Shown here in pieces: positions 3,215 to 33,207 of a DNA stretch of 64,000 nucleotides. The stretch comes from a virus, in IMG/VR virus record IMGVR_UViG_3300001201_000002, positions 1 through 64,000 of that record. The stretch is one strand, 5' to 3'. A model generated the notes under the pieces. The model saw only the letters and a list, made by a program, of their open reading frames with translations. It was not told the DNA's origin and did not search any database. The stretch's first letter is position 1. Every line of letters begins with the position of its first letter. Position numbers and translations under genes: made by a program.

Positions 3215-4004
3215 CGCCCAGAAAAACCTTGAAGAGACCTATTCGAAGTATCAGCTGATGCCGGTGCTTCGCTCTGAATTCGGAGAGATAGTCGAAGGTT
3301 TCGATGACCCAGACTGGGGCAAATTCGTCGTAGATGTGCTGTGTCAGATCTATCTGCATCGCCAAGCAGACGTCACCACAATGGTAGGTGTGCTGTATCC
3401 AGTCCATGGAGAAACACCTCAGATCGTGGCAGACAAATTGCTCGTTGCCGCGGAAGAAGACTACATCGACTTCGATGAGGATCGCCAACGTTTCAGCGTG
3501 ATCTATGACCTCACCGACGATGTCGTCTCGATGCTGGACAAATATCAGTATCCACTGCCGATGATCACACCTCCACTTCCTGTCAAATACAACAACCAGA
3601 CAGGATATGTGACCATCCACAACTCAGTCGTGCTGAACACAGCTGGCAGTGACTACTTCGACGACAAGGACATGTGCCTTGACCACCTGAACCGGGCGAA
3701 CTCTGTTCCGCTCACACTCGACGCTGATGTGATCAAATCACCTGAAGGTCGTTACTCCATGCCCAAGAGAAAATCGGGTGAGGACTTCAACGATTTCCAA
3801 AAACGCCTACGCCAGGCGACCATATTCTATGACACATCTCTCAAAGTCATGGATGAGGTGGCTCAGCTCTCCGATCAGATCTTCCTAACTCATAGGTTCG
3901 ATCGCCGCGGCAGATGCTATAGCTCTGGCTACCACATCAACACACAAGGCACAGACTACAACAAAGCTGTGCTTCAACTCGCAAACAAAGAGGTACTATC
4001 ATGA
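3204..4004 (+). CDS. T7-like RNA polymerase, N-terminal subunit (N4 RNAPII gp15-like, RNAP1)
   Basis: FLTHRFDRRGRCYSSGYHINTQGTDYNKAVLQLA matches the T7 RNAP DxxGR block (DWRGRVYAV..FNPQGNDMTKGLL). At 266 aa it is the size of N4 gp15. Confidence 0.85.
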   Translation: MNHDAQKNLEETYSKYQLMPVLRSEFGEIVEGFDDPDWGKFVVDVLCQIYLHRQADVTTMVGVLYPVHGETPQIVADKLLVAAEEDYIDFDEDRQRFSVIYDLTDDVVSMLDKYQYPLPMITPPLPVKYNNQTGYVTIHNSVVLNTAGSDYFDDKDMCLDHLNRANSVPLTLDADVIKSPEGRYSMPKRKSGEDFNDFQKRLRQATIFYDTSLKVMDEVAQLSDQIFLTHRFDRRGRCYSSGYHINTQGTDYNKAVLQLANKEVLS

Positions 4005-4153
4005 TTAGAGGAATTCTGGAGTGGATCTCCGCATTAATCGACGAGATATTTGTCTGGCTTGTCCGTGCTTTTGGCGCTTGTCTTGGTCTCAAACTGTTCT
4101 TCATGTTTGTTGGCTTCGGTGACCCAATCTTCCTAGAGATGCTAGGGTTATGA
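4001..4153 (+). CDS. small membrane protein (50 aa)
   Basis: ATGA overlap with RNAP1. Hydrophobic core FVWLVRAFGACLGLKLFFMFVGF. Confidence 0.45.
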   Translation: MIRGILEWISALIDEIFVWLVRAFGACLGLKLFFMFVGFGDPIFLEMLGL

Positions 4154-4314
4154 GCCGCAAGCGGTATCTCTACATGAACAAGTGGGGTGTCATCATGATT
4201 GATGGCGCCTCAGCTACAATCGAAGAGTTCTGCAGACTAACCAAGAACACAATCTTATCCATAGATACAGACGGAACTGTATCTGGATGTATCCATGAAT
4301 CAACGGAGAAATGA
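4150..4314 (+). CDS. hypothetical protein (54 aa)
   Basis: ATGA overlap with the previous ORF. Confidence 0.4.
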   Translation: MSRKRYLYMNKWGVIMIDGASATIEEFCRLTKNTILSIDTDGTVSGCIHESTEK

Positions 4315-4315
4315 A

Positions 4316-4705
4316 ATGCTAACCGGTCAACAAATCGAAGCCATGACAACTGAAGAACTGAACCAGTATGCCAGAAAAGAAAATGCCTGTGCGGCATTCA
4401 TGAATTCGTTGCTACCCTCAGGTGTCCAGCCTAGCACTGTGGCATCAACCATCCGCAAAGCTTTTCATAGTGGATGGGAGCAGCGCAAGATTGCTGAGTA
4501 TGAAGCCATGGCGGAAAATGGTGTCGAACCAGCACCCAATCTGGCTTACGTCACTGCGCTGGAAGAATTCATTGTGGAAAATACCTTCGGATCCACCACA
4601 GATGAGATCTACTCAAGCAACAAAGATGATGAGGTATTGGATGATCCTACAGGTCTGATCCTGACTCTCATCAAGAAGAAAGGCTGCAGTTATGCCCAAT
4701 CATAA
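4316..4705 (+). CDS. hypothetical protein (129 aa)
   Basis: ATG 1 nt after the previous stop, GGAGAA upstream. Confidence 0.6.
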   Translation: MLTGQQIEAMTTEELNQYARKENACAAFMNSLLPSGVQPSTVASTIRKAFHSGWEQRKIAEYEAMAENGVEPAPNLAYVTALEEFIVENTFGSTTDEIYSSNKDDEVLDDPTGLILTLIKKKGCSYAQS

Positions 4706-4946
4706 GTTCACTTTCGATGCTCGCCTCAATACCACCATTGAGGTGACTGTCGATGAACTGCTTGACGTCCGTCATGCTCACCCAAGAGCCAAAGAGATCT
4801 TTGAGCGCTTGGTTCTAACTGATCCTGTGACCGGGAAGACTTACGACTTGGACCTTGAAGATGGTCTGGTCGTACTCTCGATCGAAAATGACGACTCACC
4901 AACAGCAATCGAAAGGCTGAATGCAAATGACACTCAGACCCTGTAA
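4692..4946 (+). CDS. hypothetical protein (84 aa)
   Basis: Open frame with a 14-nt overlap on the previous ORF. Confidence 0.55.
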   Translation: MPNHKFTFDARLNTTIEVTVDELLDVRHAHPRAKEIFERLVLTDPVTGKTYDLDLEDGLVVLSIENDDSPTAIERLNANDTQTL

Positions 4947-4966
4947 CCACTGCGGAAGGACACACC

Positions 4967-5206
4967 ATGGGCCTATTGACGAAGACTGCGCAACGTTTGT
5001 TGCGGGGAAAATATCCGAGATTGCTCGCAACTTGGGTACTCCGAGAGGAAATAGAGGAGATGAACCAGACAGTGAAATACCTGTCGGAAGCGAACGACAC
5101 GATCGAGATAATCCTCGAAGCTAATGCTGGTCTAGCAGCCAGGCTCAACCAATCCCACGAATACACGAGATCGCTGATCTCCCAAATCCACGGAGAACTA
5201 CACTAA
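4967..5206 (+). CDS. hypothetical protein (79 aa)
   Basis: RBS GGAAGGA. TAATG coupling to the next ORF. Preferred over the overlapping frame 4921-5124. Confidence 0.5.
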   Translation: MGLLTKTAQRLLRGKYPRLLATWVLREEIEEMNQTVKYLSEANDTIEIILEANAGLAARLNQSHEYTRSLISQIHGELH

Positions 5207-5550
5207 TGGAAGACGCAACACTCAAAGCTGACATCATCCACGACATCGCAATGTATCGGAAACCACTGCCAACTCTGATCGAGATGGCTCTCGACATTGC
5301 GTATGACAACGACATGATCAACCGGGTTCGGCCGGAAAGCCTGTTCCTCACCAAGCTGGCCACATTGTTCAGTGAGCAGCCGATCGTCAGATTGTTATCT
5401 GTTGAGCACTTCTGCTTCAGCTTGTCCGAATCAGAACGCATGGTCATCACTTGTGGCGACCAACAAATGGCACGTGAGCTTGCTCGTGAATTCAGTGACG
5501 CTGGCCTGTTGACCGTATTCCTCAACGCTGTGTTCGAGATGGAACTATGA
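5206..5550 (+). CDS. hypothetical protein (114 aa)
   Basis: Coupled start and stop (TAATG, ATGA). Confidence 0.6.
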   Translation: MEDATLKADIIHDIAMYRKPLPTLIEMALDIAYDNDMINRVRPESLFLTKLATLFSEQPIVRLLSVEHFCFSLSESERMVITCGDQQMARELAREFSDAGLLTVFLNAVFEMEL

Positions 5551-6762: not shown

Positions 6763-7962
6763 ATGTTCACATCACTTACTGGAACTGAATACCTTAAAGC
6801 TGAAATCGCATGCAAACATGATAAAGCATTCGAGAAAGAAACATGGGAAGAACGACTAAACCATTTCGACTCTTTGGATCTTGATGATCCAATGACATTC
6901 AAGAAGGCCAGCAATCCAATTGGTCTTCGCGCAGCTGTCCATGCTCTCAATGAGGGATTAGCCGGCAAAGAGACTGGCTACATGATCTCACTGGATGCTT
7001 GTTCATCTGGTCTTCAGATCCTCTCGTTGTTGGTTTCCTGCCCGAAATCCTTCGCGCTCTGTGGTGGTAACTCGCAGCAGTGTGTGGACAGCTACACCAC
7101 AATCTACGACTCCATGAACCTTCACGGCGCACTGACTCGAAAGGAAGTCAAGAACGCAATCATGACGTCACTGTATGGCTCAGTGGCTATGCCTGAGATC
7201 ACCTTCGGAGACAACGTCGACCTGTTCTATGACACCATGGAAGAGATGGCACCAGGCGCATGGGACCTTAACCTCGGACTCCAAGAGCTCTGGGAGAAAG
7301 TTCCTGGCTCAACCTACAGCTGGACCATGCCAGACAACTTCCACGCTTGCATCGAAACCAAGGACAAAGAGATGCTCGACTTCAACTTCCTCGGTGAAAG
7401 TTATGCCCTGAAGGTCAAAGTCAACGGACGACCTGAGTTCCATAAAGGCTTGGGCCCGAACCTCATCCACTCAGTGGACGGTATGGTGGTACGTGAGATG
7501 TTCCGTCGTTGTATGTTCAATATCGAATCACGTGACCGTGTCATGTTGGCTCTATCAGCCCACTGGGGTGGTAAATCGACTAACCAACTTAAGACTGCAG
7601 ACGACCGAATGGTCAACTTACTGTGGGATCGTTACATCGAGACTGGCTTCCTGTCAGCTCGTATCCTTGACCATACCACACCTGCCAACATCGGACTTAC
7701 TGATGCTCAGGTGATCGACGATATGATCAACAGTCTGCCGGCAAAGCCATTCGACGTGGTCTCAGTCCATGACTGCTTCCGTGCTCATCCAAACTACGGT
7801 GATGATCTACGGCGCCAGTACAACACCATCTTGGCTGACATCAACGATTCCAAGCTGCTGGGTTACCTCTGCAGCCAAGTCACCAACTCACTTGTTCCAG
7901 TCAAGAAGATCGGTAAGATCAAGCGTGAGACAATCACAGAAGGGAACTATCTCCTCGCCTAA
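6763..7962 (+). CDS. T7-like RNA polymerase, catalytic C-terminal subunit (N4 RNAPII gp16-like, RNAP2)
   Basis: SLDACSSGLQILS corresponds to T7 motif A (DGSCSGIQHFS). KNAIMTSLYGS is motif B. VHDCFRAHP is motif C (HDSF). Confidence 0.9.
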   Translation: MFTSLTGTEYLKAEIACKHDKAFEKETWEERLNHFDSLDLDDPMTFKKASNPIGLRAAVHALNEGLAGKETGYMISLDACSSGLQILSLLVSCPKSFALCGGNSQQCVDSYTTIYDSMNLHGALTRKEVKNAIMTSLYGSVAMPEITFGDNVDLFYDTMEEMAPGAWDLNLGLQELWEKVPGSTYSWTMPDNFHACIETKDKEMLDFNFLGESYALKVKVNGRPEFHKGLGPNLIHSVDGMVVREMFRRCMFNIESRDRVMLALSAHWGGKSTNQLKTADDRMVNLLWDRYIETGFLSARILDHTTPANIGLTDAQVIDDMINSLPAKPFDVVSVHDCFRAHPNYGDDLRRQYNTILADINDSKLLGYLCSQVTNSLVPVKKIGKIKRETITEGNYLLA

Positions 7963-7968
7963 ACAAAT

Positions 7969-8005
7969 CCTCCTTGCACATCCCAGTGCAGGGAGGTAAT
8001 TTTTT
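7969..8005 (+). terminator. rho-independent terminator after RNAP2
   Basis: 11-bp stem CCTCCTTGCAC/GTGCAGGGAGG, loop ATCCCA, then TAATTTTTT. Confidence 0.8.
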
Positions 8006-8074
8006 CTCTATGAAATGCGAAAGGGGCTCCTCAATCAAGAGAAGCCCCACCACAATCAAACAAGGAGGAAACCG

Positions 8075-8281
8075 ATGGCCAATCCACAATCATCGACTCG
8101 CACAGAAAACCATTTTTACACCGACGATGCAAGCAAAATTATCTACTACGGACCAAATAGTCCTGATCAGGATCTCGGGCTAGTATTTCTAGGCAGCTCA
8201 GACAACCCTAAGCCGGCCTCGGCCGCCACTGCTATGTTAAAGGGACAGAAGGGCTGGAAGATCCGTAAACTAGAAGCATAA
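8075..8281 (+). CDS. hypothetical protein (68 aa)
   Basis: Strong RBS AAGGAGG 6 nt upstream of the ATG. Confidence 0.6.
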   Translation: MANPQSSTRTENHFYTDDASKIIYYGPNSPDQDLGLVFLGSSDNPKPASAATAMLKGQKGWKIRKLEA

Positions 8282-8330: not shown

Positions 8331-8585
8331 ATGACAATTGCTTCAACCACAGCCACAGAACTCGAAGAAATTCTACGTGCATACATCGACGAGCAGTCTA
8401 TGCCCATCACCGATGGTATCGACTACGATCTTGGGGACAATCTCCACGACAAATTGGGTCTGGATCAGCTTGATATTCTTGAAATGCTCATGCACCTAGA
8501 AGAACTCTTTACAATCGAAATGCCTGACGATGATTACGTGTCCCTCCAAGACATGATCACTGCAGCTGAGGAACAAATTGGATGA
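8331..8585 (+). CDS. acyl carrier protein homologue lacking the phosphopantetheine Ser (Ser to Gln)
   Basis: KLGLDQLDILEMLMHLEELFTIEMPDDDYVSLQDMI aligns with the ACP core [35 protein letters not shown]. The Ser codon position is CAG at 8466-8468. Confidence 0.75.
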   Translation: MTIASTTATELEEILRAYIDEQSMPITDGIDYDLGDNLHDKLGLDQLDILEMLMHLEELFTIEMPDDDYVSLQDMITAAEEQIG

Positions 8586-8968
8586 GTTCTTCAGCCTCAG
8601 ATGCCTGGTATGTGAAGAAGGGAGGATACTATTATAGACCTAAGGCCCAAGGTTACACTCCTCACATCTGGGAAGCCGGCCGGTTCACCTACGAAGAAGC
8701 CTACAGCCACTCTCACCCTAATGGCCCAGACGGACCAAGAGACGGCATCACCATGGGCAAAACTTCCAATGTTCACATTGGCTTAGGTGGTTGGCTCGAA
8801 CGGGTTCAAGTTCACGAACCAGGTGAAGCACAGACTCCTCCTTCCACATTGGAAGAGTGGTTCTACGTCTCTGACGCCAATGTCATCATCGCGTTCTTCC
8901 GTAATATGGACGACGCATTCACATTCAAACTCGACTACATCAATGGAAAGCTGAACAAATGCCGCTGA
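8582..8968 (+). CDS. hypothetical protein (128 aa)
   Basis: ATGA overlap with the ACP-like gene. Confidence 0.6.
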   Translation: MSSSASDAWYVKKGGYYYRPKAQGYTPHIWEAGRFTYEEAYSHSHPNGPDGPRDGITMGKTSNVHIGLGGWLERVQVHEPGEAQTPPSTLEEWFYVSDANVIIAFFRNMDDAFTFKLDYINGKLNKCR

Positions 8969-10077
8969 AGATACTCACACCCTCGCAAGCGAAAGAGCAC
9001 ATCGTATTTGCACTTCGCTCGATCCCACCTGAGATCCCTTACATTGCCGGAGAGCCTGGTATCGGGAAGACCGACATTCAGAGCCAGGTGGCAGAAGAAT
9101 TCAACCTGAAGCTCATCGTTGAGCACCTGAGCCAGCGTCTCCCTGAAGACCTCACAGGCATGCCACGCATCAATGCCGACACAGGTCGCTCAGAGTATGT
9201 GCCCTTTGGCATTATCCCTCTGGAAGGTGACCCATTGCCTGTGGATGATGACGGCGATGAGATGGAAGGCTGGTTGCTATTCCTCGACGAGCTTGCAGAT
9301 GCAGACGATGCTGTCTGGTCAGCAATCTATCCACTACTCATGGGACGCACAGTCGGCGGCCGTAAGATCCACGACAAAGTTCTGATCAGCGCGGCCGGCA
9401 ACCGGGAAAGCGATGGCGCACTGTCTCGTAAGCTCCCTGACACTCTTGTCACCCGCATGTTGTGCCGTGAAATGCGTGCCTCTCATGAAGACTGGTTGGA
9501 ATGGGCTAAGTCCTCTTCCAAATCAAACGAACGGGTTGTCCAGTTCATAGAGAACAACGCAACCATGTTGCTCTCGACCATGAAACCAGAAGAACGGCAA
9601 GAGCTTCAGGCTTATGAGTCACCACGTGGCTGGGCTAAAGTGATGAATATCGTGAACACCCACGAGCGCATCACCAAGGCAACTGACACCAACGAACTGG
9701 GTATTACCCTGTCTGAGGCTGCAGTCCACAACATCCAGGCTGCCGTAGGTGACTTCGCCTCCAAAGCTTTCGTTGACTTCTACGACAGCTCCACCACCTT
9801 GCCTTCACCATTTGACATCGTGACATCTCCGTCATCGTCGATCGTGCCTCCTACCTCAGTGGGCAAAGCACGTTTGACAACGTCACTGGCTGAATACTTC
9901 CTGCACAACAAGGGCGACTCAATCGTCACAAATGCAATCATGAAGTACATCAACCGTCTGCCGAAAGACAACGGCGGTCAGTTCTTCCAGTTGGTTGAAG
10001 CAGGTCTGGGTCAGATCTCATCTGATCAAGCTCTCTTGAAATCACTCCAGAAGACTCTCGGTCTGGACCTCATCTAA
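8959..10077 (+). CDS. MoxR-type AAA+ ATPase
   Basis: Walker A GEPGIGKT and Walker B LLFLDELADAD. Immediately followed by a VWA partner. Confidence 0.8.
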   Translation: MPLKILTPSQAKEHIVFALRSIPPEIPYIAGEPGIGKTDIQSQVAEEFNLKLIVEHLSQRLPEDLTGMPRINADTGRSEYVPFGIIPLEGDPLPVDDDGDEMEGWLLFLDELADADDAVWSAIYPLLMGRTVGGRKIHDKVLISAAGNRESDGALSRKLPDTLVTRMLCREMRASHEDWLEWAKSSSKSNERVVQFIENNATMLLSTMKPEERQELQAYESPRGWAKVMNIVNTHERITKATDTNELGITLSEAAVHNIQAAVGDFASKAFVDFYDSSTTLPSPFDIVTSPSSSIVPPTSVGKARLTTSLAEYFLHNKGDSIVTNAIMKYINRLPKDNGGQFFQLVEAGLGQISSDQALLKSLQKTLGLDLI

Positions 10078-10086
10078 GGAAACCAC

Positions 10087-11304
10087 ATGCTACCTCCATC
10101 AAGAACCTGGGAAGATGTGAACTTTCGCAAGGAAGTCTACAAAATCATCACCAGCGATAGCCGTTTCGACGGCATGGCATCCTACCTGTCAAGCGTCCAC
10201 ATGTGCTGGTCCTACACGACAGCAAACTCAGTATCAGGCTACGGCTTCATGTTCTTCAATCCCGACTGGTGGGATCTCCTGCCAGAAGAGACACGTAAGA
10301 CTGTGATCTTCCACCATGGCCTGGCACTCCTCTGCCGGCACCGTCAACGCGGAGAAGGCCTGCAGCCTATCGTCTTCGCCCAAGCGAGCCAGAATGTCAT
10401 CAACTTGGTGGCCTCAGACGAAGGTTTCACCGCGGATGGTTGGAACTGGACCTGTGATCATATCTTCACTGGTTCCTCTGTCGAGAACGTCTACACACTT
10501 CTGATGGAGCAGGAAGACTACACTGCTCCTGAAGATCTGTTGGCATCCATCCTCCCAGATGAGATGCTGGAAGACATGATCGAGTCTGTGCTGGACGAAG
10601 ATGGCAAACCAATCGACCTGGAAGACGCCAAAGCAGAAGACGAAATCAACGTTGTGCGTACCGTGGAAAATGGTCCCGGTTACGGCATCGGTTTCGTTGG
10701 AGGCTCAGCTGGTCTTGACCTGAACATCGGTCACCAGGAAGAAATCATCGTGGGAGCCACCTACGAGGAGATCCTGGAGCCTTACACGGACACCGGGGAA
10801 CCACAGATGACAAGGACATATCGTCGTCCTAGCCGTCGCTCAGCTGGTTCAGACTTCATCCTACCGGGACGCATGAAGATCAAAGGGCATCGCCCTGATC
10901 GCATCAAGCACCTGTACCTTCTCTTGGATGTGTCAGGCTCGATCGGCCAGGAACAGGCTCGTCAGTTTAACTACTCAGCCCAAACCATCAAATCGACTTT
11001 GGATCCTGAGATGATGACTGTCATGTTCTTCGACACGCGCATCGTGAAAGAAGTCTCCTTCAAGGACACAGAAAAATATACTCCTCTGAAGGTACGCGCC
11101 GGCGGAGGCACCAACCTCAACCCACCTTACAAGCGTATCGCTGAAATCAACCCAGAATTGGTTATGATCTTCACAGACATGCAAGTGGGAATTCCTGATC
11201 AGCCTGAATGGGACACGATCTGGATGGTGCCTGACAAGCAATGCCCAATCCCGAAAGATCTGTACGGACAGGTCTACCTGATCCCACCACGGGAGAAGGT
11301 CTGA
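10087..11304 (+). CDS. von Willebrand factor A (VWA) domain protein
   Basis: MIDAS motif LLLDVSGSIG in the C-terminal half. Pairs with the upstream MoxR ATPase. Confidence 0.75.
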   Translation: MLPPSRTWEDVNFRKEVYKIITSDSRFDGMASYLSSVHMCWSYTTANSVSGYGFMFFNPDWWDLLPEETRKTVIFHHGLALLCRHRQRGEGLQPIVFAQASQNVINLVASDEGFTADGWNWTCDHIFTGSSVENVYTLLMEQEDYTAPEDLLASILPDEMLEDMIESVLDEDGKPIDLEDAKAEDEINVVRTVENGPGYGIGFVGGSAGLDLNIGHQEEIIVGATYEEILEPYTDTGEPQMTRTYRRPSRRSAGSDFILPGRMKIKGHRPDRIKHLYLLLDVSGSIGQEQARQFNYSAQTIKSTLDPEMMTVMFFDTRIVKEVSFKDTEKYTPLKVRAGGGTNLNPPYKRIAEINPELVMIFTDMQVGIPDQPEWDTIWMVPDKQCPIPKDLYGQVYLIPPREKV

Positions 11305-12744: not shown

Positions 12745-13211
12745 CTCAACACCCACAAGTGAAGGCGTATAGGCGCCAACGTATGCTTGAGGTTCGGAAG
12801 ATTGTTGCAGAGACAGTTAAGAATGGTGGTCGCGTTGACCAGCTGTCTATTGCTGAAGCTGACGTCCCAAGATACCTCATTGCCCTGCAAGACATGCTGG
12901 ACGATGCAAACACCCGCCATGCTAAGGCGACAGATCACATTCAGAAGAATGCCAATGCTCTGGCTGATACTGAAGAGATGTACCTGTCGGCTATGGCTGA
13001 TTCAGGTAACCAGTTCCTTGCAATGCACGAAGAGATCCTCCGCGCTGAATCCCATGCTGACAACATGGAAGATGAAGCAGTTCGTCTCTCTGAAGGTTGG
13101 AATCGGGCAAATATGGACGTGAACTCTTTGACCATGGAAAACGAGAATTTACAGCGTCGTATAGAAGCACTGCTGTCGACTATCGCTATCCTGTCGGAGG
13201 GTTCCGTATGA
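12741..13211 (+). CDS. hypothetical coiled-coil protein (156 aa)
   Basis: ATGA overlaps at both ends. Heptad-like C-terminal half. Confidence 0.6.
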   Translation: MTQHPQVKAYRRQRMLEVRKIVAETVKNGGRVDQLSIAEADVPRYLIALQDMLDDANTRHAKATDHIQKNANALADTEEMYLSAMADSGNQFLAMHEEILRAESHADNMEDEAVRLSEGWNRANMDVNSLTMENENLQRRIEALLSTIAILSEGSV

Positions 13212-14689
13212 GCGAGTTGCGTGATAAATCACAAACTAAACCTCAGCTACTAATCATCGGTCATGGGCGCCATGGGAAGGACAGCTTTGCTGAACTTCTC
13301 TCGGTCATCTGCGGCCTTCAGTTCACATCCTCCTCACACTTCGTCGGTGAGCGCTGTATCTGGCCTGCTTGGGGCCAAGAGCGTTACGAAACGTTTGAGG
13401 ATTGCTTTGTGGACCGGGTTAACTACCGGAAAACATGGGCAGATTTGATCTCAGCATGGAACACTCCAGACAAGGCTCGCACTGCGCGGACTATGTTCGA
13501 AGAAGGCAACCACATGTATGTCGGCATGCGTCGTAAAGACGAGTTCGATGCTTGCATGGAAATTGACCTGTTTGACCATGTGATCTGGGTGGACGCGGGG
13601 AACCGCTTGCCTCTGGAACCAGCAGACTCAATGGAGATGGTCCGTGAGATGGCTGATCTCTATGTGGACAACAACGGTGCTGAAGGAGCTTTGCTCGATT
13701 ACGCCTTGGCCATACAGAAACACCTCCACGACGAGGGGTTCTATGTGGGATACCATGAGCCAATCATCGAAGAGAAGTCAGAACCTGTGTTCAAAACAGC
13801 TCGCCCAATCGAGAAACCTGAACTTGAAATAGCTGAAGAGCCAGTAGAGAAAGGTGATCGTCTAACTTGGTTCGATGCCCCTGAGGGCGCCACTCCAGTC
13901 CTTGACCACGGGTTTATCCAGGTGAAGGAAGTGATGGGCTCTGATAAGGACATCGCTGACTCTGCTCGTATGAGTTACGGACGCGGCACCAAGACGGTGA
14001 ACAATGACCAAGGTCTGATTAATTATCTTGTTCAGAATCACCATACATCACCACTTGAGATGGGTGAGATCAAGTTCCACATTCGTCTACCGATCTTCAC
14101 CATGCGTCAGTGGGTGCGTCACCGCACAGCTAACCTGAACGAGTATTCAGGACGTTATTCTGAGATGATCCGTCTGTTCTACATTCCTGAATTGGATAAA
14201 ATCATGTATCAGGGCTTGGTCAACAAGCAGATGTCTGGTGAACCATTACCAGAAGAACTAGCCAAGGGAGCTCAAGACGTGATGAGGATAGCTTCTATGG
14301 AAGCGTTCAATGCCTACGAACGTCTGCTCAACGAAATGGATGTATCACGGGAGACTGCCCGCATCGTTCTACCCCTTAACACCTACACAGAGGTGGTCTG
14401 GAAGATGGATGTTAGCAATCTACTAAAGTTCTTGTACTTGCGTGACGACCCACATTCTCAATGGGAGATTCAGGTCTATGCTCGCGAAGTTGCAAAAGCT
14501 GTGAAAGAATACTTCCCTGCAGTTTATGCTGCTTACGAGCGTTCTAAGACACGTGTTTCGTTAAACGAAGATCAGCTTTACGCTCTCATGACGTCAGACA
14601 CATCTCACCTTGGAAAAGGTGAAACTGCTGTGGTTGAAGGCATTGTGAAAAAAATGTTTAAGCGTGCAGCACTTGAAGACTTAGCCTAA
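13208..14689 (+). CDS. thyX: dNMP-kinase-like P-loop domain fused to FAD-dependent thymidylate synthase ThyX
   Basis: C-terminal half carries the ThyX signature RHRTANLNEYSGRYS. The N-terminal ~190 aa has LLIIGHGRHGKDSFAELL (cf. T4 gp1 GVKRSGKDT). Start is at ATGA with GGAGGG upstream. Confidence 0.85.
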   Translation: MSELRDKSQTKPQLLIIGHGRHGKDSFAELLSVICGLQFTSSSHFVGERCIWPAWGQERYETFEDCFVDRVNYRKTWADLISAWNTPDKARTARTMFEEGNHMYVGMRRKDEFDACMEIDLFDHVIWVDAGNRLPLEPADSMEMVREMADLYVDNNGAEGALLDYALAIQKHLHDEGFYVGYHEPIIEEKSEPVFKTARPIEKPELEIAEEPVEKGDRLTWFDAPEGATPVLDHGFIQVKEVMGSDKDIADSARMSYGRGTKTVNNDQGLINYLVQNHHTSPLEMGEIKFHIRLPIFTMRQWVRHRTANLNEYSGRYSEMIRLFYIPELDKIMYQGLVNKQMSGEPLPEELAKGAQDVMRIASMEAFNAYERLLNEMDVSRETARIVLPLNTYTEVVWKMDVSNLLKFLYLRDDPHSQWEIQVYAREVAKAVKEYFPAVYAAYERSKTRVSLNEDQLYALMTSDTSHLGKGETAVVEGIVKKMFKRAALEDLA

Positions 14690-14788: not shown

Positions 14789-15133
14789 ATGGCTCGAAAT
14801 ACCATCCCTACTATCCAGCTGAAGCGTGGGAACACCTTCCGTCTGGACATCTCAGCGACTGATCCAAATGCAGAAAATTTGCCAGTCGATCTCACTGACT
14901 ACGTCATCACCGCCCAATTGCGTTACGGCGACGAATTAGCGGCCGATCTTCAGGTTATCCTGACAGACGTTACCGCTGGTGACTTCTCCCTCTACCTCAA
15001 TGCTTCCTTGGTTCGAGAACTCAAGGTTCGCAAGTATGATGGAGACATCCTGTTTCACACACCGGATGGGACGTTTATCTCTTCCGAATCATTCATTCTC
15101 GATCTGGAAAAAGAGGTGACACGTTTTGCTTAA
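14789..15133 (+). CDS. hypothetical beta-rich protein (114 aa), coupled to tailspike
   Basis: Its own RBS (AAAGG). Overlaps the TTG start of the next gene by 8 nt. Confidence 0.6.
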   Translation: MARNTIPTIQLKRGNTFRLDISATDPNAENLPVDLTDYVITAQLRYGDELAADLQVILTDVTAGDFSLYLNASLVRELKVRKYDGDILFHTPDGTFISSESFILDLEKEVTRFA

Positions 15134-18110
15134 TCTCAACGCAAATTCCAATCCAATCATTTCATTGGCTGTATCACAGCCTGATACGGATGTAGCCTTC
15201 ACCCTCGGTGTAGGCATCAATTCATCGGCTCTCCACTACACTGACCTCGGCACAGGCGGAGCATCATCCCCTCTTCGCAAGGCGACCAACGGTGTCAACC
15301 TGAAAAACCTGGCTGTCCTTGAGACAGAAGCACACGCTCTTGGCGACCTGGCTATGGGTTTTGCAGAGAACATCACCGGTGGATCCGGCCTCGACGTCTA
15401 CTGGGTTTCCCACACTGTTCAGAACGGTGAGCTGCGTGATACGCGCCAGGCTAACGCTCAGGACAATTCAGACTTCGTCTACGGCTCATTCCGCTGGGCG
15501 GTTCAGATGTGCCGTGAGAACAATGGCGGCATCATCCTGTTCGAACCAAAAGGCTTCCACCAACTGTCGATCACGTGGCAAGAAGAGATCCCAAGCAACA
15601 CAACCATCTGGGCACCCAACAAGAACGTGGTCTTCGTGAAGCCTACCCAGGCTACAGCGATCAAACCAGCTGGTTCAAATATCATCATCCGCGGCATCTA
15701 TTTCAAAGACGTCAAAGACCTGCGTTCACACTCCTCTCGTGATGGTATCTATGTTGACCCGAACATCACCAACCTGATGTGGATCGACAGCTGTACCTTC
15801 GAGCAAATTGCTGACGGGTGTATCGACATCAACTCCCTGTCTGAGTTCACTTCCCGCTCTGACATCACGATCTCGAACTGTATCTTCCGTGGTCACGACA
15901 AAACCATGCTGATTGGCTCACTGGCCTGTTACCAGGACACTGAGGACGGTACGGTCTTGCCAACATACTGTGCAACACCTCTTGACGCTCCAGCCCTGCT
16001 CCACGTGACGCTCTACAACAACTACTTTGACCACACCTCTCAGCGTAACGCGAAGGTCCTTGGTCAGACGTTTGTTGACTTCTGCAACAACTTTGTTGGA
16101 TTGGCTCCATTCAGCCGGCCGGATGCGTCTGTAGCCTCAGTCTACGGAACTCACGCTCACATGGGCGCACGTGTCATCTCACGATACAATCACTATGCGT
16201 CATACGCTGGTGACGGCTATCTGGCTGTCGACGGTATTGCTGACGGTGTCTTCTCACCACGGGTGGGCAGTGACCTGGCTGACGCTTCACCGGGTGCCAT
16301 CGTTGAAGAAGGTAACCGTTACGACTCTGGTATCACCTCCACACCAAACCCATTGGAGGCAATCGTCGCTCCAACTTATACGACTCCTTTGGAAATCGTA
16401 CCGGTCAACTCTTTGGAAGAGGTTCTCTCTTCACGTGTTGGTGGATGGAACCACTTCCTACCTTACAACTATGTCGTTCAATCCGAGGCAGACAGCACAG
16501 GCATTTACCCAGATGGTGTGACTCTCCGCGGTGACCTGTACGACCGGACCCAGTTCTTCTCAGTCTTCCAGCCCCTGGATGTGATCCAGCCTATCGGCTC
16601 ACGTCTATCTCTGGAATTGGGAACCAATGTGGTAGCGAACTCAGTTGGTCAGATCGGTGTTGGTAACGACATCGACATCAACATTGCAGCCTACCATGCA
16701 AGTGCTATGGGCCAAGAAATCTACGTTGGAGAACTTGGAGACATGAGCTTCAATGCCGGTCGCGGTATATGGAACAACGTGTCCCAGTCTGTATCTGTTG
16801 GCTCATTCCCTACCATCAACGACGAGAAAGAAGTCCATTATTGGTACGAGGACATGTGGGAAGAGGGTGACCCAGTCCTCACCTATGATAAAGACGCGCC
16901 AGACATCCTCAACAAAGGATATGTCTTCCAGGTTGGTTCAGGTGGATCTACCGGGTCTCGCCGGAATGCTATCGGTGTCAAGAAAGACAGCGGTACAACA
17001 GAGATGCAGTCGATTGCTTACCCACGTGATGGGTCAAAAGACATCGTAGACGGTATTGTACGGCTAGAGGCTGTGTACCACACTCTTCGTACTGAGGGTT
17101 GGGATGATCCAGTCACTCCAGTCTATGAGGATGACATCGAAACCATTCTATACGGCCGTTACCGTGACGTTTATGTAGATGAAGTGTATGTTGAAACTGT
17201 CTATGATGACTTCATGACAGACGGTCTGTTTGTAATGATCACTCCTGCGTCATCAGCAGGTGTTATCACTATCAAGCATGACACTGAAGATGGTAACATC
17301 CGGCTGGCTGGTGAGCAAGACATCATCCTTGACGGATCTAAAGCACACATGTTGCAGTTGTTCTACCAAGCATCTCGTGGATGCTGGACTAATTTCATTG
17401 GAACTGGTACTTCAACGGCTCAATCTGGAACAACACCTCTTGGTGATGTGGACATCACAAGCGTATCGTCCTCTGCTGAATTGCAGAGCATTATTGATGA
17501 TCCAAACTATCACAACAATGACTACAACGACACATTGGTCAAGTGGGCTGCTCAAGAGCCTATGAATAACCTGGTTGCTGACTTTGGTCTCACAAGTCAC
17601 TACGATCTTAATGGTTACAACGCAATTAATGACCTTCAGGACAACCATAATTGGTCTATCACCGATGGAGGAGTAGACAATAACGCCTTAAGTGATACTT
17701 TGACTGTTAACCCAAACTTCGACACTGATATCAATAACTGGAATCCATACAATGGCGGGAATTCAAGTGCTGTATGGGATAACGGTAAGATTGAGGTAAC
17801 TTCAGGCAGCAACGGTCTTGGTTATGAGCAAGGTATCAGCTTGATTGCAGGTAGGGTCTATGTGCTTAGTGCTGAGGTACAAGCAACTGCCACTGGTCCA
17901 TCAATTCTTGGCCTTGTAAACTCGTCTCGGTCTGCGTTTATTAAAACCAGTGAGAACATTAATGTTAGTGATGGCGTGACTAACGTATCGTTTATCTATG
18001 AAAACCCAACCTCCACGAATTACTACCTGTACTTACGGGTCGGTTCTGGATCCGGTCGGGTTGGTGTCTACGACAATATTTATGTGAAGGAGCTTCAGTC
18101 CTTATCTTAA
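15126..18110 (+). CDS. tailspike-like polysaccharide lyase (pectate lyase PL1-type beta-helix plus C-terminal carbohydrate-binding domain)
   Basis: Blocks NIIIRGIYF, DGIYV, MWIDSCTF, DGCIDI, ITISNCIFRGHDKTMLIGS and VTLYNNYFDHTSQRNAKV..FCNNF follow the PL1 pectate lyase order. The C-terminus NPNFDTDINNWNPYNGG...YDNIYVKEL is CBM4/9-like. TTG start after GAGGTGA. Confidence 0.75.
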   Translation: MLNLNANSNPIISLAVSQPDTDVAFTLGVGINSSALHYTDLGTGGASSPLRKATNGVNLKNLAVLETEAHALGDLAMGFAENITGGSGLDVYWVSHTVQNGELRDTRQANAQDNSDFVYGSFRWAVQMCRENNGGIILFEPKGFHQLSITWQEEIPSNTTIWAPNKNVVFVKPTQATAIKPAGSNIIIRGIYFKDVKDLRSHSSRDGIYVDPNITNLMWIDSCTFEQIADGCIDINSLSEFTSRSDITISNCIFRGHDKTMLIGSLACYQDTEDGTVLPTYCATPLDAPALLHVTLYNNYFDHTSQRNAKVLGQTFVDFCNNFVGLAPFSRPDASVASVYGTHAHMGARVISRYNHYASYAGDGYLAVDGIADGVFSPRVGSDLADASPGAIVEEGNRYDSGITSTPNPLEAIVAPTYTTPLEIVPVNSLEEVLSSRVGGWNHFLPYNYVVQSEADSTGIYPDGVTLRGDLYDRTQFFSVFQPLDVIQPIGSRLSLELGTNVVANSVGQIGVGNDIDINIAAYHASAMGQEIYVGELGDMSFNAGRGIWNNVSQSVSVGSFPTINDEKEVHYWYEDMWEEGDPVLTYDKDAPDILNKGYVFQVGSGGSTGSRRNAIGVKKDSGTTEMQSIAYPRDGSKDIVDGIVRLEAVYHTLRTEGWDDPVTPVYEDDIETILYGRYRDVYVDEVYVETVYDDFMTDGLFVMITPASSAGVITIKHDTEDGNIRLAGEQDIILDGSKAHMLQLFYQASRGCWTNFIGTGTSTAQSGTTPLGDVDITSVSSSAELQSIIDDPNYHNNDYNDTLVKWAAQEPMNNLVADFGLTSHYDLNGYNAINDLQDNHNWSITDGGVDNNALSDTLTVNPNFDTDINNWNPYNGGNSSAVWDNGKIEVTSGSNGLGYEQGISLIAGRVYVLSAEVQATATGPSILGLVNSSRSAFIKTSENINVSDGVTNVSFIYENPTSTNYYLYLRVGSGSGRVGVYDNIYVKELQSLS

Positions 18111-18143: not shown

Positions 18144-19301
18144 ATGGCAAATCAAATGACCGACACCCAGCGGGAGGCTCTTGAGGCCTACCGCGAACAT
18201 GGTAACAATTATCAAGCAGCTGCAGATGCTCTGAACAAATCCCGCCGAACGATCAGAGAACTGGTTGCAAAAGCCCTGAAGTGGGAAGAAATCTCTGAAT
18301 CACCTGGGCTCGCAAAAGCTCTCCACACCACTGGCCTTGACGGCGCCGTAGTCGAAGGTGGCTGGCGGATTACACAGGAGACTTTACCCGATGGCACTGT
18401 TGTCCGGAACTCTGTCCGATACCGCCTTAAAGGAGTTCAAGACTCAACTCCAATTGATGTTGCACAAGCCATCACTGAAAGCCTCAAAACTGTCATTCCC
18501 ATGGCCCTCATCCAAGGACCGAATGACAAACTCCCCGCAGAAATCTGCAATTTCATTCCGTTGGCCGACCTCCACGTCGGTGGAGAGTACGGAGACCCAG
18601 AATATAAACCCACAGTCATCGCAGCAATCGAACGACTCATCCTCGGACTACCTAAGGCCTCCAAAGCTGTCCTCCTTGACATGGGCGATCTACTCGACGC
18701 AAATGATCACAAAGGTCTGACACCAGCTTCGATGAACGAATGTGACGTCATTCGGGAAAACCATTTGAAGAACACACTAGACGCTTTGGACATCATGCGC
18801 TACGCAGCCACACGGCTTGCTGAGACACACGACGAAGTCGAAGTCCACCTGCTCCGCGGCAACCACGATGAGACGGCCTACATTGGCGTCATGGTTGGCC
18901 TCCACGAGTATTTCCGTGACAACCCACGTGTGAATATCGTCATGACCGACGATGACTTCCGTGTGATCCCATGGGGCAAGTGCGCAGTGTTCCCACACCA
19001 CGGTGACAAAGCCAAGTGGGAAGATCTTAAGTCTGTCTTCTCAGATCAGTTCTGTGACGCATGGGCTGCAGCGAAATACTGGCGCTTCATCTGGACAGCT
19101 CACGTCCACCATGACAAGCAGCGCGAGATGATCGGTGCCGTGGGTGAACACTTCCGGACCCTGGCTGCACCAAACCGCTGGGCCCAACTGAAAGGCCTGT
19201 TCTCACGTGGTGGGATCCAGGCGATTACTCTCCACAAGGAATTCGGTGAGACTGACCGCAAAAAGGTCAATCTGCAACCGCTATTGCTTCAGGACAAGTA
19301 A
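18144..19301 (+). CDS. metallophosphoesterase with N-terminal helix-turn-helix
   Basis: Calcineurin-like motifs ADLHVG, MGDLLDAND, RGNHDE, HHGD and AHVHH. The N-terminal 50 aa is HTH-like (NYQAAADALNKSRRTIRELV). Confidence 0.8.
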   Translation: MANQMTDTQREALEAYREHGNNYQAAADALNKSRRTIRELVAKALKWEEISESPGLAKALHTTGLDGAVVEGGWRITQETLPDGTVVRNSVRYRLKGVQDSTPIDVAQAITESLKTVIPMALIQGPNDKLPAEICNFIPLADLHVGGEYGDPEYKPTVIAAIERLILGLPKASKAVLLDMGDLLDANDHKGLTPASMNECDVIRENHLKNTLDALDIMRYAATRLAETHDEVEVHLLRGNHDETAYIGVMVGLHEYFRDNPRVNIVMTDDDFRVIPWGKCAVFPHHGDKAKWEDLKSVFSDQFCDAWAAAKYWRFIWTAHVHHDKQREMIGAVGEHFRTLAAPNRWAQLKGLFSRGGIQAITLHKEFGETDRKKVNLQPLLLQDK

Positions 19302-22800: not shown

Positions 22801-24048
22801 ATGGCTAAAACGCGCTTCGTCTATCGCGAACAGGTCCTTCACCAGGGCGTCGTTCGTGAAGTAACATCCATCAAATTCCACAATGCAGATCCATGGGTCT
22901 CTTACGAGCTGACCGGTGTCGCTGATTTTGTGGGTCAAGAAGAACTCACAAAGATCCAACCACAGGAAGTCGACGGTGCTGCTTATGTCAAGGAAGCACT
23001 CATGTTTGCTGACTTGCTTGTCATCACAGGTGACTCAACCTCTGACAACAGCTACAGCGAATCAATCGAATACTTCACCCGCATGTACGGTAAAGTTGGG
23101 ATCGACATCTTTGACAACGCTGCATCTGGTCTGGAAGCTGCTGACTGGGTCGATAACACAGGCAACGCTACTGTGAACGAAGCCATTGCGGCTATTCCCG
23201 GCACCGGTGAAGGTACTGTCTGGCAGTTCTGCTTGGGCATCAACGACGTTGGTTCCGGTGGTGGTATGTTGACTCCTCAGCAACTGGTTGACATCTTCAC
23301 ACCTGGTATCGACGCTGTACTTGCAGCTAAGCCTGATGTGGTCCTGTACTTTGTGCAGCCAACTGCTCTTGCAGACTCAACACGGAATGATGCTCTGAAT
23401 GGGGCTTATGAAATCCTTGAAGATCTCTATGGTGCTTACGTGGTTCCGCTGTATCAGCCAATGCGTGACATCTATGACGCTGCGACTGACAACATCTTCT
23501 ACCAGGACAGCACACACCCGAACAACATCGGGACGATCCGTCAGATCAACATCATCCTGAACCACACTATCCCAGGTGCTTTCGTTTCAGATATGACTCT
23601 TGATCAAGAGCATTACACCGACATCACAGAAATCCTTGTCGATGAAATGGGTCCTTCGGACATCATCGCCGGACGTTACTGGAACTCTTCAGGCAGCCGC
23701 AGCAATAACGCATCCTGGGCCAGCTTTGATGCTCTGCCGGTGAAACTTGGACAGCGTGTTCGGGTCAACCACGGTGGTAACCGTTCGGATCTTCGACTGG
23801 TTTCATCTCCTTTTGATAACGATGGTGGCACGTTTGTCCGTACAATCACAGGCACTGGTGATCCTATTGTCTTTGACATCGCAGATGCAGGGGATGCTGT
23901 TGGTATCAACGTCGATTCGTCTGGGGCATATACAGCCCCTGGCGATGCTTATGCTCGTGTTTACGATCTCGTAAAAGAGAAAGCAGATTCCGATTTGACT
24001 CAAGACGAAATCAATATCGGTTTGACCATGCGTCTTATCGAGGCGTAA
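22801..24048 (+). CDS. SGNH/GDSL-family esterase with extra N- and C-terminal domains
   Basis: Block I VITGDSTSD, block III CLGINDV and block V QDSTHPN. Confidence 0.75.
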   Translation: MAKTRFVYREQVLHQGVVREVTSIKFHNADPWVSYELTGVADFVGQEELTKIQPQEVDGAAYVKEALMFADLLVITGDSTSDNSYSESIEYFTRMYGKVGIDIFDNAASGLEAADWVDNTGNATVNEAIAAIPGTGEGTVWQFCLGINDVGSGGGMLTPQQLVDIFTPGIDAVLAAKPDVVLYFVQPTALADSTRNDALNGAYEILEDLYGAYVVPLYQPMRDIYDAATDNIFYQDSTHPNNIGTIRQINIILNHTIPGAFVSDMTLDQEHYTDITEILVDEMGPSDIIAGRYWNSSGSRSNNASWASFDALPVKLGQRVRVNHGGNRSDLRLVSSPFDNDGGTFVRTITGTGDPIVFDIADAGDAVGINVDSSGAYTAPGDAYARVYDLVKEKADSDLTQDEINIGLTMRLIEA

Positions 24049-24066
24049 ACTAATCCCAACCAATCA

Positions 24067-24100
24067 AAAGGGTCTGCAGGAAACTGTGGGCCCTTTCTTT
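24067..24100 (+). terminator. hairpin terminator/attenuator immediately upstream of the luxI-like gene
   Basis: 8-bp stem AAAGGGTC/GGGCCCTTT (one G:U) followed by CTTTA. The GGAG RBS and ATG of the next gene follow within 12 nt. Confidence 0.5.
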
Positions 24101-24111
24101 ATGGAGCAATC

Positions 24112-24621
24112 ATGTCTTACAAAATAGTGCCGTTCGGCTACCAAGGCCCACTTGTTGATGAAATGTTTTGGGCCCGTAAGCGCCTGTTCGTAGATCGTCT
24201 GAAGTGGGACCTCACTGTTACCGCAGAAGGCTACGAAGTTGACAATTATGACAACTACCGCTGTGAATACCTGATCCTCGGAGAGCCACACGAGGCCTCC
24301 ATGCGCCTGATGCGAATCTCGGATCCTTGCATGACAGTGGAAGCATTCCCTGGACTGTTCGATCGGTCCATGGCTAAAGATCCAGACAACGCAATTGAAG
24401 TCACACGCTTCTGCGTCGACCCTTGGACACCCGGTAAAGCTACTGAACTGTTCCAGGCTGGTCGTGACTGGCTCTACACCACCGAGTTCACGTCATTCGT
24501 GGCCGTCTACACTCCAGCGATGCTGCGGGTCTACAAGCGGGCCGGCTGGATGCCGAACACAATCAACTCAGCTGACAGCCCAGAGGGTAAAATACTCGTA
24601 GGACAGTGGAGTAAGCCATGA
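24112..24621 (+). CDS. luxI: LuxI-family acyl-homoserine-lactone (autoinducer) synthase homologue
   Basis: Family blocks appear in order: RKRLFVDRLKW (R..F.....W), GYEVDNYD (ExDxxD), MRLMRISDPCM (RL..P), IEVTRFCVD (E.[ST]RF.V) and MLRVYKRAGW. Confidence 0.85.
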   Translation: MSYKIVPFGYQGPLVDEMFWARKRLFVDRLKWDLTVTAEGYEVDNYDNYRCEYLILGEPHEASMRLMRISDPCMTVEAFPGLFDRSMAKDPDNAIEVTRFCVDPWTPGKATELFQAGRDWLYTTEFTSFVAVYTPAMLRVYKRAGWMPNTINSADSPEGKILVGQWSKP

Positions 24622-30266: not shown

Positions 30267-30472
30267 AACTAACCCAGGCTCAAAAGAAGTGGCTGACAGC
30301 CCTAAACGAGACTGGTTTCGTGGAGTTCGGATGGTCAATGAGAAATGGTCAACGAAACCGTCCTTTGAGGACTCTTATCCGCTTAGGTCTTGCCGCTGAA
30401 ACCGAAACTCATCCAGATGGTGGGTATTCTTGGGGAGTTATCCCAACACCAGAAGGGAAAGCCTTGTTATGA
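30263..30472 (+). CDS. hypothetical protein (69 aa)
   Basis: ATGA overlaps at both ends. Confidence 0.55.
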   Translation: MKLTQAQKKWLTALNETGFVEFGWSMRNGQRNRPLRTLIRLGLAAETETHPDGGYSWGVIPTPEGKALL

Positions 30473-32463: not shown

Positions 32464-33207
32464 ATGCTTAGTTTCACTGAGCCGGTCACAGGTGCCTCAG
32501 AGGTTTCGGCCTCTGAGCACAACGTGGCCAGGGTAAATTCCATCAAGAAAAAGTACAAGCATTGGCGCCAGGAATCGAAAGTTCCTACGTTCGCTCTGAC
32601 GTATGACGGGACCTACATCACTCTGATGAAGAACCTCGGCATGAGTGAGGAGCTGGCCAAGTCAATCGAAGAAAACTACCACAAGCTTTATGCCGTTTCG
32701 GATGCCTGGGTAGCGGATAAGATTGACCAAGCCTCCAGGGATGGGTACATCACCGCTGCATTCGGGCTGAGAGTGCGAACTCCGCTCATGAACCAAGTGG
32801 TAATGGGTACGAGCAAGACACCTCATGAGGCTGCCTCTGAGGGCCGCACAGCGGGTAACGCTCTAGGTCAGTCTTGGTGCATGCTCAACAACCGGGCAGC
32901 ATCTGAGTTCATGGCTCTGGTTCGGTCCGGTGAGCACCGACTGGACATCAAACCATGTGCTCACATCCACGATGCCCAATACTACTTGATCCGCGACAAC
33001 ATGGAGACGTTGATGTACGTCAACACCCATTTGTCTCAAGCGGTTCGCTGGCAAGATGATCCACTGATCGAGAATGAACACATCTCAATGAGTGGGCAGC
33101 TGGAAATCTTCCACCCAACCTGGTGTCACGGATTTGACATCCCTAACGAAACTACCGAAGAGGAAATCGGATGTCTGATCAAAGAACACCTGGAAAGCCT
33201 CAGCTAG
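32464..33207 (+). CDS. family-A DNA polymerase, part 2 (motifs B and C)
   Basis: Motif B RQESKVPTFALTYDG and motif C HIHDAQYY. ATG lies 9 nt after the part-1 stop in the same reading frame. The RBS AAGGAG overlaps that stop. Confidence 0.85.
   Translation: MLSFTEPVTGASEVSASEHNVARVNSIKKKYKHWRQESKVPTFALTYDGTYITLMKNLGMSEELAKSIEENYHKLYAVSDAWVADKIDQASRDGYITAAFGLRVRTPLMNQVVMGTSKTPHEAASEGRTAGNALGQSWCMLNNRAASEFMALVRSGEHRLDIKPCAHIHDAQYYLIRDNMETLMYVNTHLSQAVRWQDDPLIENEHISMSGQLEIFHPTWCHGFDIPNETTEEEIGCLIKEHLESLS

Follow-up and report, generated by a model that had tools for sequence, protein, structure and literature searches.

The ACP-like gene and its product

We analysed a stretch of 64,000 nucleotides of viral DNA (positions 1 to 64,000 of the IMG/VR record IMGVR_UViG_3300001201_000002; hereafter the window), in which a small gene at 8331..8585 encodes a homologue of the acyl carrier protein (ACP) with glutamine in place of the serine that accepts 4'-phosphopantetheine. 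The window represents most of a contig of about 74 kb from an N4-like (Schitoviridae) phage. An earlier note, made from the letters of this DNA alone, had pointed out the replacement in this one gene; comparison with related proteins indicates that the finding is more general than that note knew, since a whole phage clade shares it as a fixed trait. The gene and the parts of it that are discussed below are as follows.

8331..8585, + strand: coding sequence of the serine-less ACP-like protein, 84 amino acids (aa), net charge about -20, based on the open reading frame (ORF), family matches and predicted fold
8466..8468, + strand: CAG codon of Gln46, at the position of the phosphopantetheine serine (Ser36) of Escherichia coli AcpP; first residue of predicted helix II
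8463..8537, + strand: conserved core D45-Y69, with helix II (DxLDxLEIxMxLEE) and the clade-specific PDxDY motif

The ORF runs from an ATG at 8331 to a TGA at 8583-8585 and its 84-aa product is very acidic; the start codon is backed by homologues that start at the identical place. Both the ORF and its glutamine codon are as the earlier note described them, the CAG being codon 46 and lying two substitutions from any serine codon. An independent assembly, a Logan contig of SRR2835693, is 100% identical over 1843 bp, CAG included.

The protein matches the Pfam PP-binding family (PF00550) with 23.3 bits (gathering cut-off 20.8; E 7.8e-5) and with glutamine at the serine position, and the same family match was already precomputed for most of its relatives. 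It is also matched by PHROG 5934, annotated as acyl carrier protein (E 1.3e-8), and ACPs were the only matches of a phmmer search against PDB, where the LGLDSLD of the ACPs is aligned with LGLDQLD of the phage protein. The scans of NCBIfam, Pfam and PHROGs gave ACP or PP-binding matches only; PADLOC was not searched. The score against the NCBIfam AcpP equivalogs (TIGR00517, PRK00982) was 32.6 bits against a cut-off of 70.45, and other AcpP models were likewise far below their cut-offs. The homology to AcpP is nevertheless secure in spite of the modest identity, because AcpP-type ACPs are matched over their whole length by a profile of the clade to which the protein belongs (E about 1e-17 to 5e-19). 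The wording that the core matches ACP almost residue for residue was too strong, since 14 of the 27 residues compared with E. coli AcpP are identical and 6 are conservative replacements; the homology that it was meant to express stands.

The ACP fold that had been claimed is also predicted. An AlphaFold2 model based on an alignment of 12 relatives (predicted local distance difference test score, pLDDT, 84.7; predicted template-modelling score, pTM, 0.74) places helices at residues 6-22, 38-42, 46-60 and 72-83, so that helix II begins exactly at Q46, and has a loop in place of helix III. In a Foldseek search against PDB, all 50 of the 50 matches listed were ACP chains or ACP-containing complexes (TM 0.55-0.77). 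Family matches and model together indicate that the protein is a homologue of bacterial type II ACP (AcpP) with a predicted ACP fold.

Loss of the carrier serine

A word-indexed protein search with the single ACP-like sequence returned the self-match only, so that 1.84 billion representative proteins had to be searched exhaustively with HMMER, which gave 42 matches. The closest of them all lack the serine: the residue is Glu in P0002, P0003 and P0005, Asp in P0010, P0012, P0013, P0025 and P0040, Gln in P0023 and Gly in P0019. A profile search added P0043, P0044 and P0045, with Gln, and P0046, with Asp. About 140 single-domain ACPs were placed in a neighbour-joining tree, whose smallest clade with all nine members of known N4-like gene context comprises 17 proteins, and the serine site is occupied by Q, E, D or G in every one of them (serine in 0/17). 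The canonical ACPs with a DSL motif score lower against the clade profile and fall outside the clade, and the nearest serine-bearing match, P0047, comes from an unrelated phage of Rad52/RdgC type.

The codons found at this site in the clade (CAG, CAA, GAA, GAG, GAT and GGG) are each at least 2 nt away from any serine codon, and the residue switches among Q, E, D and G even where two members are closely related, such as P0043 (CAG) and P0026 (GAG). The absence of the carrier serine is thus a property of all 17 clade proteins. The earlier note had left room for relatives that keep the serine, with the glutamine being specific to one isolate or an error; the 17 serine-less proteins, their codons and the identical second assembly lead us to reject both a sequencing error and an isolate-specific mutation. 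As judged from these sequences, the loss is ancestral and fixed in the N4-like clade. Since the serine that accepts 4'-phosphopantetheine is absent, established ACP biochemistry predicts that the protein is never converted to holo-ACP and carries no acyl group.

Other searches added little to this picture. Scans of IMG/VR with the single ACP-like protein, and with the neighbouring ATPase, gave nothing useful, and profile scans of IMG/VR and of the JGI metagenomes found mostly canonical serine-bearing ACPs. Among GenBank phages, megablast of the locus gave a 113-bp match in the RNAP2 gene only, tblastn with three clade members gave no match in Schitoviridae, and tblastn with P0046 gave zero matches, probably because of low-complexity masking.

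Comparison with E. coli AcpP shows what has been kept. Residues D45, L47, D48, E51, M54, E57, P65 and D66 are invariant in the clade and align with AcpP D35, L37, D38, E41, M44, E47, P55 and D56, and E58, D68 and Y69 are near-invariant; position 52 is Ile everywhere except in the window protein, which has Met. The acidic recognition helix is therefore retained, as had been claimed, with the invariant residues being those of AcpP helix II and of the P55-D56 turn, at an overall identity to the window protein of 30-53%. With AcpP as known from TIGR00517 and from the structures of Brucella (PDB 2n57) and E. coli (1l0h, 1acp), the clade shares full-length homology, the predicted helical fold, size and acidity. 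It differs in the replacement of Ser36 by Q, E, D or G in every member, in a 3-residue deletion in the helix III region directly after the PD motif, in an added conserved Tyr (PDxDY), in its scores below the equivalog cut-offs, in a context devoid of fatty-acid synthesis (fab) and phosphopantetheinyl transferase genes, and in being borne by lytic-type N4-like phages. What is trimmed in the clade is thus the region of helix III, a part of AcpP that helps to hold and release the acyl chain.

The ratio of non-synonymous to synonymous substitution rates (dN/dS) was 0.15-0.22 in the five pairs with measurable dS, which indicates purifying selection and rejects a decaying pseudogene; on this evidence the gene is functional and retained by selection. 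These data also bear on the reading that the protein is an ordinary metabolic ACP acylated through another residue, or else a pseudogene or a sequencing or assembly artefact. ACPs of phages are routinely annotated as auxiliary metabolic genes (AMGs) of fatty-acid metabolism (PMC11705849), and 7 of the 8 cultured-phage ACPs that we sampled keep the DSL or DSI serine. In the clade alignment no position holds a conserved Ser, Thr or Cys, and the low AcpP equivalog score, the dN/dS values, the 17 serine-less proteins and the identical second assembly all contradict this reading, which is scarcely tenable.

The PHROGs of phage ACPs that are called AMGs (5934 and 4154, with members in phiCbK-like phages, P-HM1, RP13, ICP1 and Erythrobacter phages) likewise hold small phage-borne PP-binding proteins, and phrog_5934 is matched by 12 of the 12 clade members tested. 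The difference lies in the serine, which makes seven of the eight sampled proteins possible true carriers and is never found in the N4-like clade. The clade shows that some phage ACPs cannot perform carrier chemistry, so that AMG annotations need a check of the serine. One published case concerns the Schitoviridae themselves, as gp30 of Alteromonas phage vB_AmeP-R22Y has been reported as an ACP and a fatty-acid AMG (PMC11705849). In the whole genome of this phage (PP212876.1) no ACP-like ORF was detected by the clade profile, by a broad ACP profile or by E. coli AcpP, the best ORF (23774-24067) having an E value of 0.34-0.76. We therefore reject the published R22Y protein as a member of the clade, and its annotation may rest on very weak similarity.

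Serine-less ACP-like proteins were also found elsewhere. The sampled cultured-phage protein that lacks the carrier serine is the 'putative acyl carrier protein' (FDAIEVDTLELVM) of the Vibrio Ackermannviridae phage 144E46.1 (MW824370.1, 89936..90199), whose gene has no ATPase or VWA neighbour and which represents an independent loss of the serine. With P0043 as the query, tblastn gives a match at this position in dozens of Vibrio phage genomes of about 157 kb, of which taxonomy and serine site were checked in 144E46.1 only. Another serine-less ACP-like gene, in locus L028, stands beside a 5'-3' exonuclease gene and is likewise without an ATPase or VWA neighbour. Among 185,579 bacterial and archaeal species genomes, the serine-less helix II signature was found at only two loci, both of them domains of larger proteins. 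One is in a Caldilinea metagenome-assembled genome (JAWOHO010000706.1; L075, 2740..3933), where a TIR domain (E 1.4e-22) is joined to a serine-less ACP domain (GMDELD; PF00550 E 5e-14) and to two C2H2 zinc fingers, an architecture that looks defence-like. The other is a Pedobacter metagenome-assembled genome (L076), which encodes a lipoprotein with a serine-less ACP domain (GCDDLD).

The acidity of the protein allows a further explanation, namely that it is a generic acidic mimic, for example of DNA or in anti-defence, which blocks a DNA-binding or immune protein of the host and not an ACP partner. The clade proteins are small (71-88 aa) and strongly negative (net charge -15 to -21, isoelectric point about 4), the gene lies in the early/middle region that is typical for host-takeover and anti-defence genes, and the TIR-domain protein hints at a link with immunity. 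E. coli AcpP, however, is equally acidic, which argues that the charge is inherited and is no new adaptation, and the conserved residues are precisely those of AcpP docking and do not form a DNA-like array of charges. The family scans, too, point to ACP or PP-binding proteins only. We regard this explanation as improbable.

Genomic position and proposed role of the protein

The N4-like nature of the phage is evident from a virion RNA polymerase ORF of 3404 aa at 41957..52171 on the minus strand, from RNA polymerase subunits of the N4 types RNAP1 and RNAP2, and from a gp24-like ATPase and a gp25-like VWA/DUF2201 protein. Its nearest cultured relatives are N4-like roseophages (Rhodovirinae), and since the amino acid identity over the ATPase is only about 42% the phage belongs to an uncultured lineage. 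Around the ACP-like gene we found the following features.

6763..7962, + strand: N4 RNAP2-like RNA polymerase subunit, the conserved upstream anchor (phrog_2051, E 3e-131)
7969..7996, + strand: terminator-like hairpin of 11 pairs followed by a T run, directly after RNAP2 (pattern match only)
8015..8281, + strand: small conserved ORF (phrog_12776), upstream of the ACP-like gene in relatives too
8582..8968, + strand: 128-aa ORF that no match assigns a function; its start overlaps the stop of the ACP-like gene by 4 nt (ATGA)
8959..10077, + strand: N4 gp24-like MoxR-type AAA+ ATPase, the conserved downstream neighbour
10087..11304, + strand: N4 gp25-like protein with a DUF2201 VWA-like domain and a putative metallopeptidase N-domain

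We examined the gene context of relatives over 10-12 kb of each contig and could place nine lineages (the window, P0002, P0003, P0043, P0044, P0046, P0023, P0019 and P0026). The ACP-like gene occupies one identical slot in all nine, on N4-like contigs of up to 72.7 kb, in the order RNAP2, small ORF, ACP-like gene, an optional ORF of 106-128 aa, gp24-like ATPase and gp25-like VWA/DUF2201 protein. This slot, heading the block of the ATPase and VWA genes, is the strongest contextual fact and was absent from the earlier note. The gene was acquired by an ancestor of this uncultured marine N4-like lineage and its genomic position has not changed since. The strong terminator-like hairpin, as a pattern match, is probably the boundary beyond which a new transcription unit begins, with the ACP-like gene near its head, together with the ATPase and VWA genes.

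The two small neighbours vary more. The ORF upstream of the ACP-like gene has 55-74 aa as called, and 88 aa if the window copy is read from its first ATG. The 128-aa ORF, which in the window overlaps the start of the ATPase by 10 nt, is kept in five of the nine placed lineages and is absent or replaced in the rest; across those five the identity to the window copy is 61-83%, with an invariant C-terminal DDAFTFKLDYINGKLN. It has no match in Pfam, PHROGs or PDB, and its single-sequence structure model was unusable (pLDDT 36.6). In L008, the contig of the P0043 relative, the RNAP2 homologue is split (3353..5475) into ORFs of 138 and 253 aa around an ORF of 198 aa, which points to an insertion, possibly of a homing element or intron.

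Cultured relatives do not share the gene. In three cultured roseophages the gap that holds it elsewhere contains only small hypothetical ORFs, which by their equal position may be counterparts of the phrog_12776 ORF, and in eight further cultured Schitoviridae, including the N4-species phage AlfredRasser, no ORF up to 3 kb from the ATPase was recognised as ACP-like when searched locally with a profile. The gene is thus a clade-specific accessory gene and no general feature of N4-like phages, and it can serve as a diagnostic marker of this uncultured marine lineage.

The conserved position raises the possibility that the protein is an accessory subunit, adaptor or substrate of the gp24-like MoxR AAA+ ATPase and the gp25-like VWA/metallopeptidase-like protein, its acidic ACP fold docking on the ATPase or offering an acidic ligand to the metal-ion-dependent adhesion site (MIDAS) of the VWA domain, a site that typically binds acidic residues. 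This is the main alternative to the reading that we favour below. It agrees with the location of the gene, in nine of nine lineages, directly upstream of the pair or one ORF of about 106-128 aa away from it, with the overlaps of 4 and 10 nt that chain the ACP-like gene, the 128-aa ORF and the ATPase gene in the window, and with the hairpin after RNAP2, which suggests one transcription unit. In N4-like phages the order of the genes is kept by common descent, so that synteny within a single clade says little about a functional linkage; moreover, the pair is present without the ACP-like gene in 11 cultured Schitoviridae and in R22Y, which means that the pair does not need it, and the intervening ORF comes and goes. 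Other serine-less ACP-like genes of phages lack such neighbours, and a new interface between two phage proteins would not call for the exact docking residues of AcpP. We consider a role in this pair unlikely, though it deserves to be kept in mind.

The protein is under purifying selection, has the predicted ACP fold and lacks the serine, and no phosphopantetheinyl transferase or fab gene was detected among the larger ORFs of the window that were scanned; for these reasons it must be a non-carrier derivative of AcpP that works by protein binding. We tentatively favour the reading that it is a permanently apo-ACP mimic, which would occupy the ACP docking sites of host proteins. We propose this since the surface-exposed acidic docking residues of helix II are kept and the helix III region is 3 residues shorter. 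The acidic residues D35, D38, E41, E47, E48 and D56 of AcpP dock on AcpS and on the Fab and Lpx enzymes, and the residues conserved in the clade are essentially those conserved in AcpP itself. Under this reading the protein would appear when middle transcription sets in and, as part of the takeover of the host, would fill the ACP-binding sites of host proteins, where it could competitively block steps that depend on acyl-ACP, such as glycerol-3-phosphate acylation and the synthesis of lipid A or fatty acids; alternatively, it could sequester regulators that bind ACP. The serine-less ACP-like proteins of other phages, with no ATPase or VWA neighbour, favour a host-directed role over one in the N4 ATPase module.

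A biochemical precedent exists, as apo-ACP inhibits the glycerol-3-phosphate acyltransferase of E. coli more than holo-ACP does and growth stops (reviewed in PMC3896788). There the unmodified ACP competes at ACP-binding sites, and in the phage protein this state would be fixed genetically; the effect in E. coli is an artefact of experimental overproduction of the host's own protein and not the work of an evolved inhibitor, and inhibition by the phage protein is a proposal made by analogy. The suggestion of the earlier note that the protein acts as a decoy or inhibitor of fatty-acid synthesis, lipid A or acyl-homoserine lactone (AHL) enzymes is plausible in the light of this one precedent, the toxicity of apo-ACP.

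Several points weigh against a mimic of this kind. Its binding partner is purely inferred, and the sole conserved neighbours of the gene are phage proteins, which would suit the adaptor role in the ATPase/VWA pair. The conservation of helix II could in part be a folding constraint inherited from AcpP, and for enzymes that touch the helix III region the deletion there could make docking weaker. Nor are N4-type phages known to shut off the lipid synthesis of their hosts. Furthermore, apo-ACP is not bound by SpoT, which is among the known partners of ACP (PMC3896788), so that mimicry without the prosthetic group is not open for every ACP partner.

Among ACPs that are no carriers, the best precedent is the mitochondrial ACP (mACP) of Plasmodium falciparum, one of several apicomplexan ACPs that lack phosphopantetheine; its serine is replaced by Phe, and it is kept as a binding partner of Isd11-Nfs1 independently of phosphopantetheine (Falekun et al. 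2021, PMC8547962). In both cases the carrier serine is lost and the protein is retained under selection, and mACP acts purely through protein-protein binding with conserved acidic residues. The likeness is a functional analogy, of principle and not of mechanism: the Phe of mACP inserts into its LYR-motif partner Isd11, while the residue of the phage clade is polar, acidic or Gly, and variable, and is therefore probably not a contact residue. The settings also differ, mACP being a protein of a eukaryotic organelle and the clade being one of phages, for which no LYR-motif partner is known and none was looked for. Falekun et al. (2021, PMC8547962) found no serine-less ACPs outside Apicomplexa and Vitrella. 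Non-carrier ACPs are thus already known and are here found in a phage clade; our literature search found no report of serine-less phage ACPs, nor anything on the function of N4 gp24 and gp25, and the very short list of phosphopantetheine-independent ACPs is extended by a phage group.

If the protein is indeed a mimic, a hub protein that is essential to bacteria and highly connected would have a simple, genetically encoded inhibitor, which could serve as a tool for mapping the surfaces of ACP partners and would add a new type to the factors with which phages take over their hosts. It might further be imagined, as a rather speculative extension, that phages have repeatedly turned the host ACP into a look-alike that cannot be loaded, a new class of host-takeover or anti-host effectors that jam ACP-dependent enzymes or regulators. 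The N4-like clade would then be the clearest fixed example, the proteins of Vibrio Ackermannviridae and other serine-less phage ACP-likes would be independent inventions, and the bacterial protein with TIR, serine-less ACP and zinc-finger domains would be a possible counter-measure.

The LuxI homologue and other genes of the window

The earlier note had also drawn attention to a LuxI homologue encoded by the same genome, and we found the following gene.

24112..24621, + strand: homologue of LuxI-type autoinducer synthases, 169 aa (PF00765, 79.4 bits, E 3e-22)

The homologue is real and lies about 15.5 kb downstream of the ACP-like gene in this lytic-type N4-like phage. A link between the two genes is unlikely, the shared genome being their only tie. 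LuxI enzymes use acyl-ACP and bind helix II of ACP, so that the ACP-like protein could be imagined as a functional partner of the phage AHL synthase, as a regulator or scaffold of acyl-ACP use, all the more as the LuxI match is strong and both genes are in one genome. Against such a partnership, many unrelated genes stand in the 15.5 kb between them, the ACP-like gene is fixed in its clade while close LuxI relatives are few, and a protein that cannot be acylated cannot be a substrate; we consider it highly improbable.

Word-index-limited searches found five LuxI-like proteins at E <= 1e-5, that of the window included, and GenBank phages gave three further, weaker matches. The one relative whose context was checked (L064) shares its contig, which is phage-like and unrelated, with a capsid gene, Pyr_excise and thymidylate synthase, and a copy with 36% identity is encoded by the Dinoroseobacter siphophage vB_DshS_R26L. 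LuxI and LuxR have also been reported in Phaeobacter prophages (2026 preprint). Directly upstream of the LuxI gene, a 415-aa ORF (22801..24048, + strand) has a weak match to GDSL-like lipases/acylhydrolases (26.6 bits against a cut-off of 32.9), and the two may form an acyl-metabolism pair.

The window also encodes ThyX, a dCTP deaminase, a ribonucleotide reductase, a helicase, a DNA polymerase and a primase. In ThyX (13097..14689, + strand) the Thy1 domain covers residues 279-474 and is preceded by an N-terminal extension of about 280 aa with no Pfam match; long ThyX ORFs, of 498-575 aa, are found in relatives also. A protein of 994 aa with pectate-lyase and CBM_4_9 matches (15126..18110, + strand) lies in the arm of nucleotide metabolism and replication, far from the structural genes, and may be an unusually placed depolymerase or tail-fibre-like protein. 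A further gene encodes a 385-aa protein (18144..19301, + strand), in which an N-terminal match to sigma-70 region 4 or a helix-turn-helix is combined with a calcineurin-like metallophosphoesterase domain. Additionally, the family A DNA polymerase is apparently split into two adjacent ORFs on the + strand (30430..32454, 674 aa, and 32464..33207, 247 aa), which match the consecutive parts 24-199 and 200-303 of the DNA_pol_A profile.

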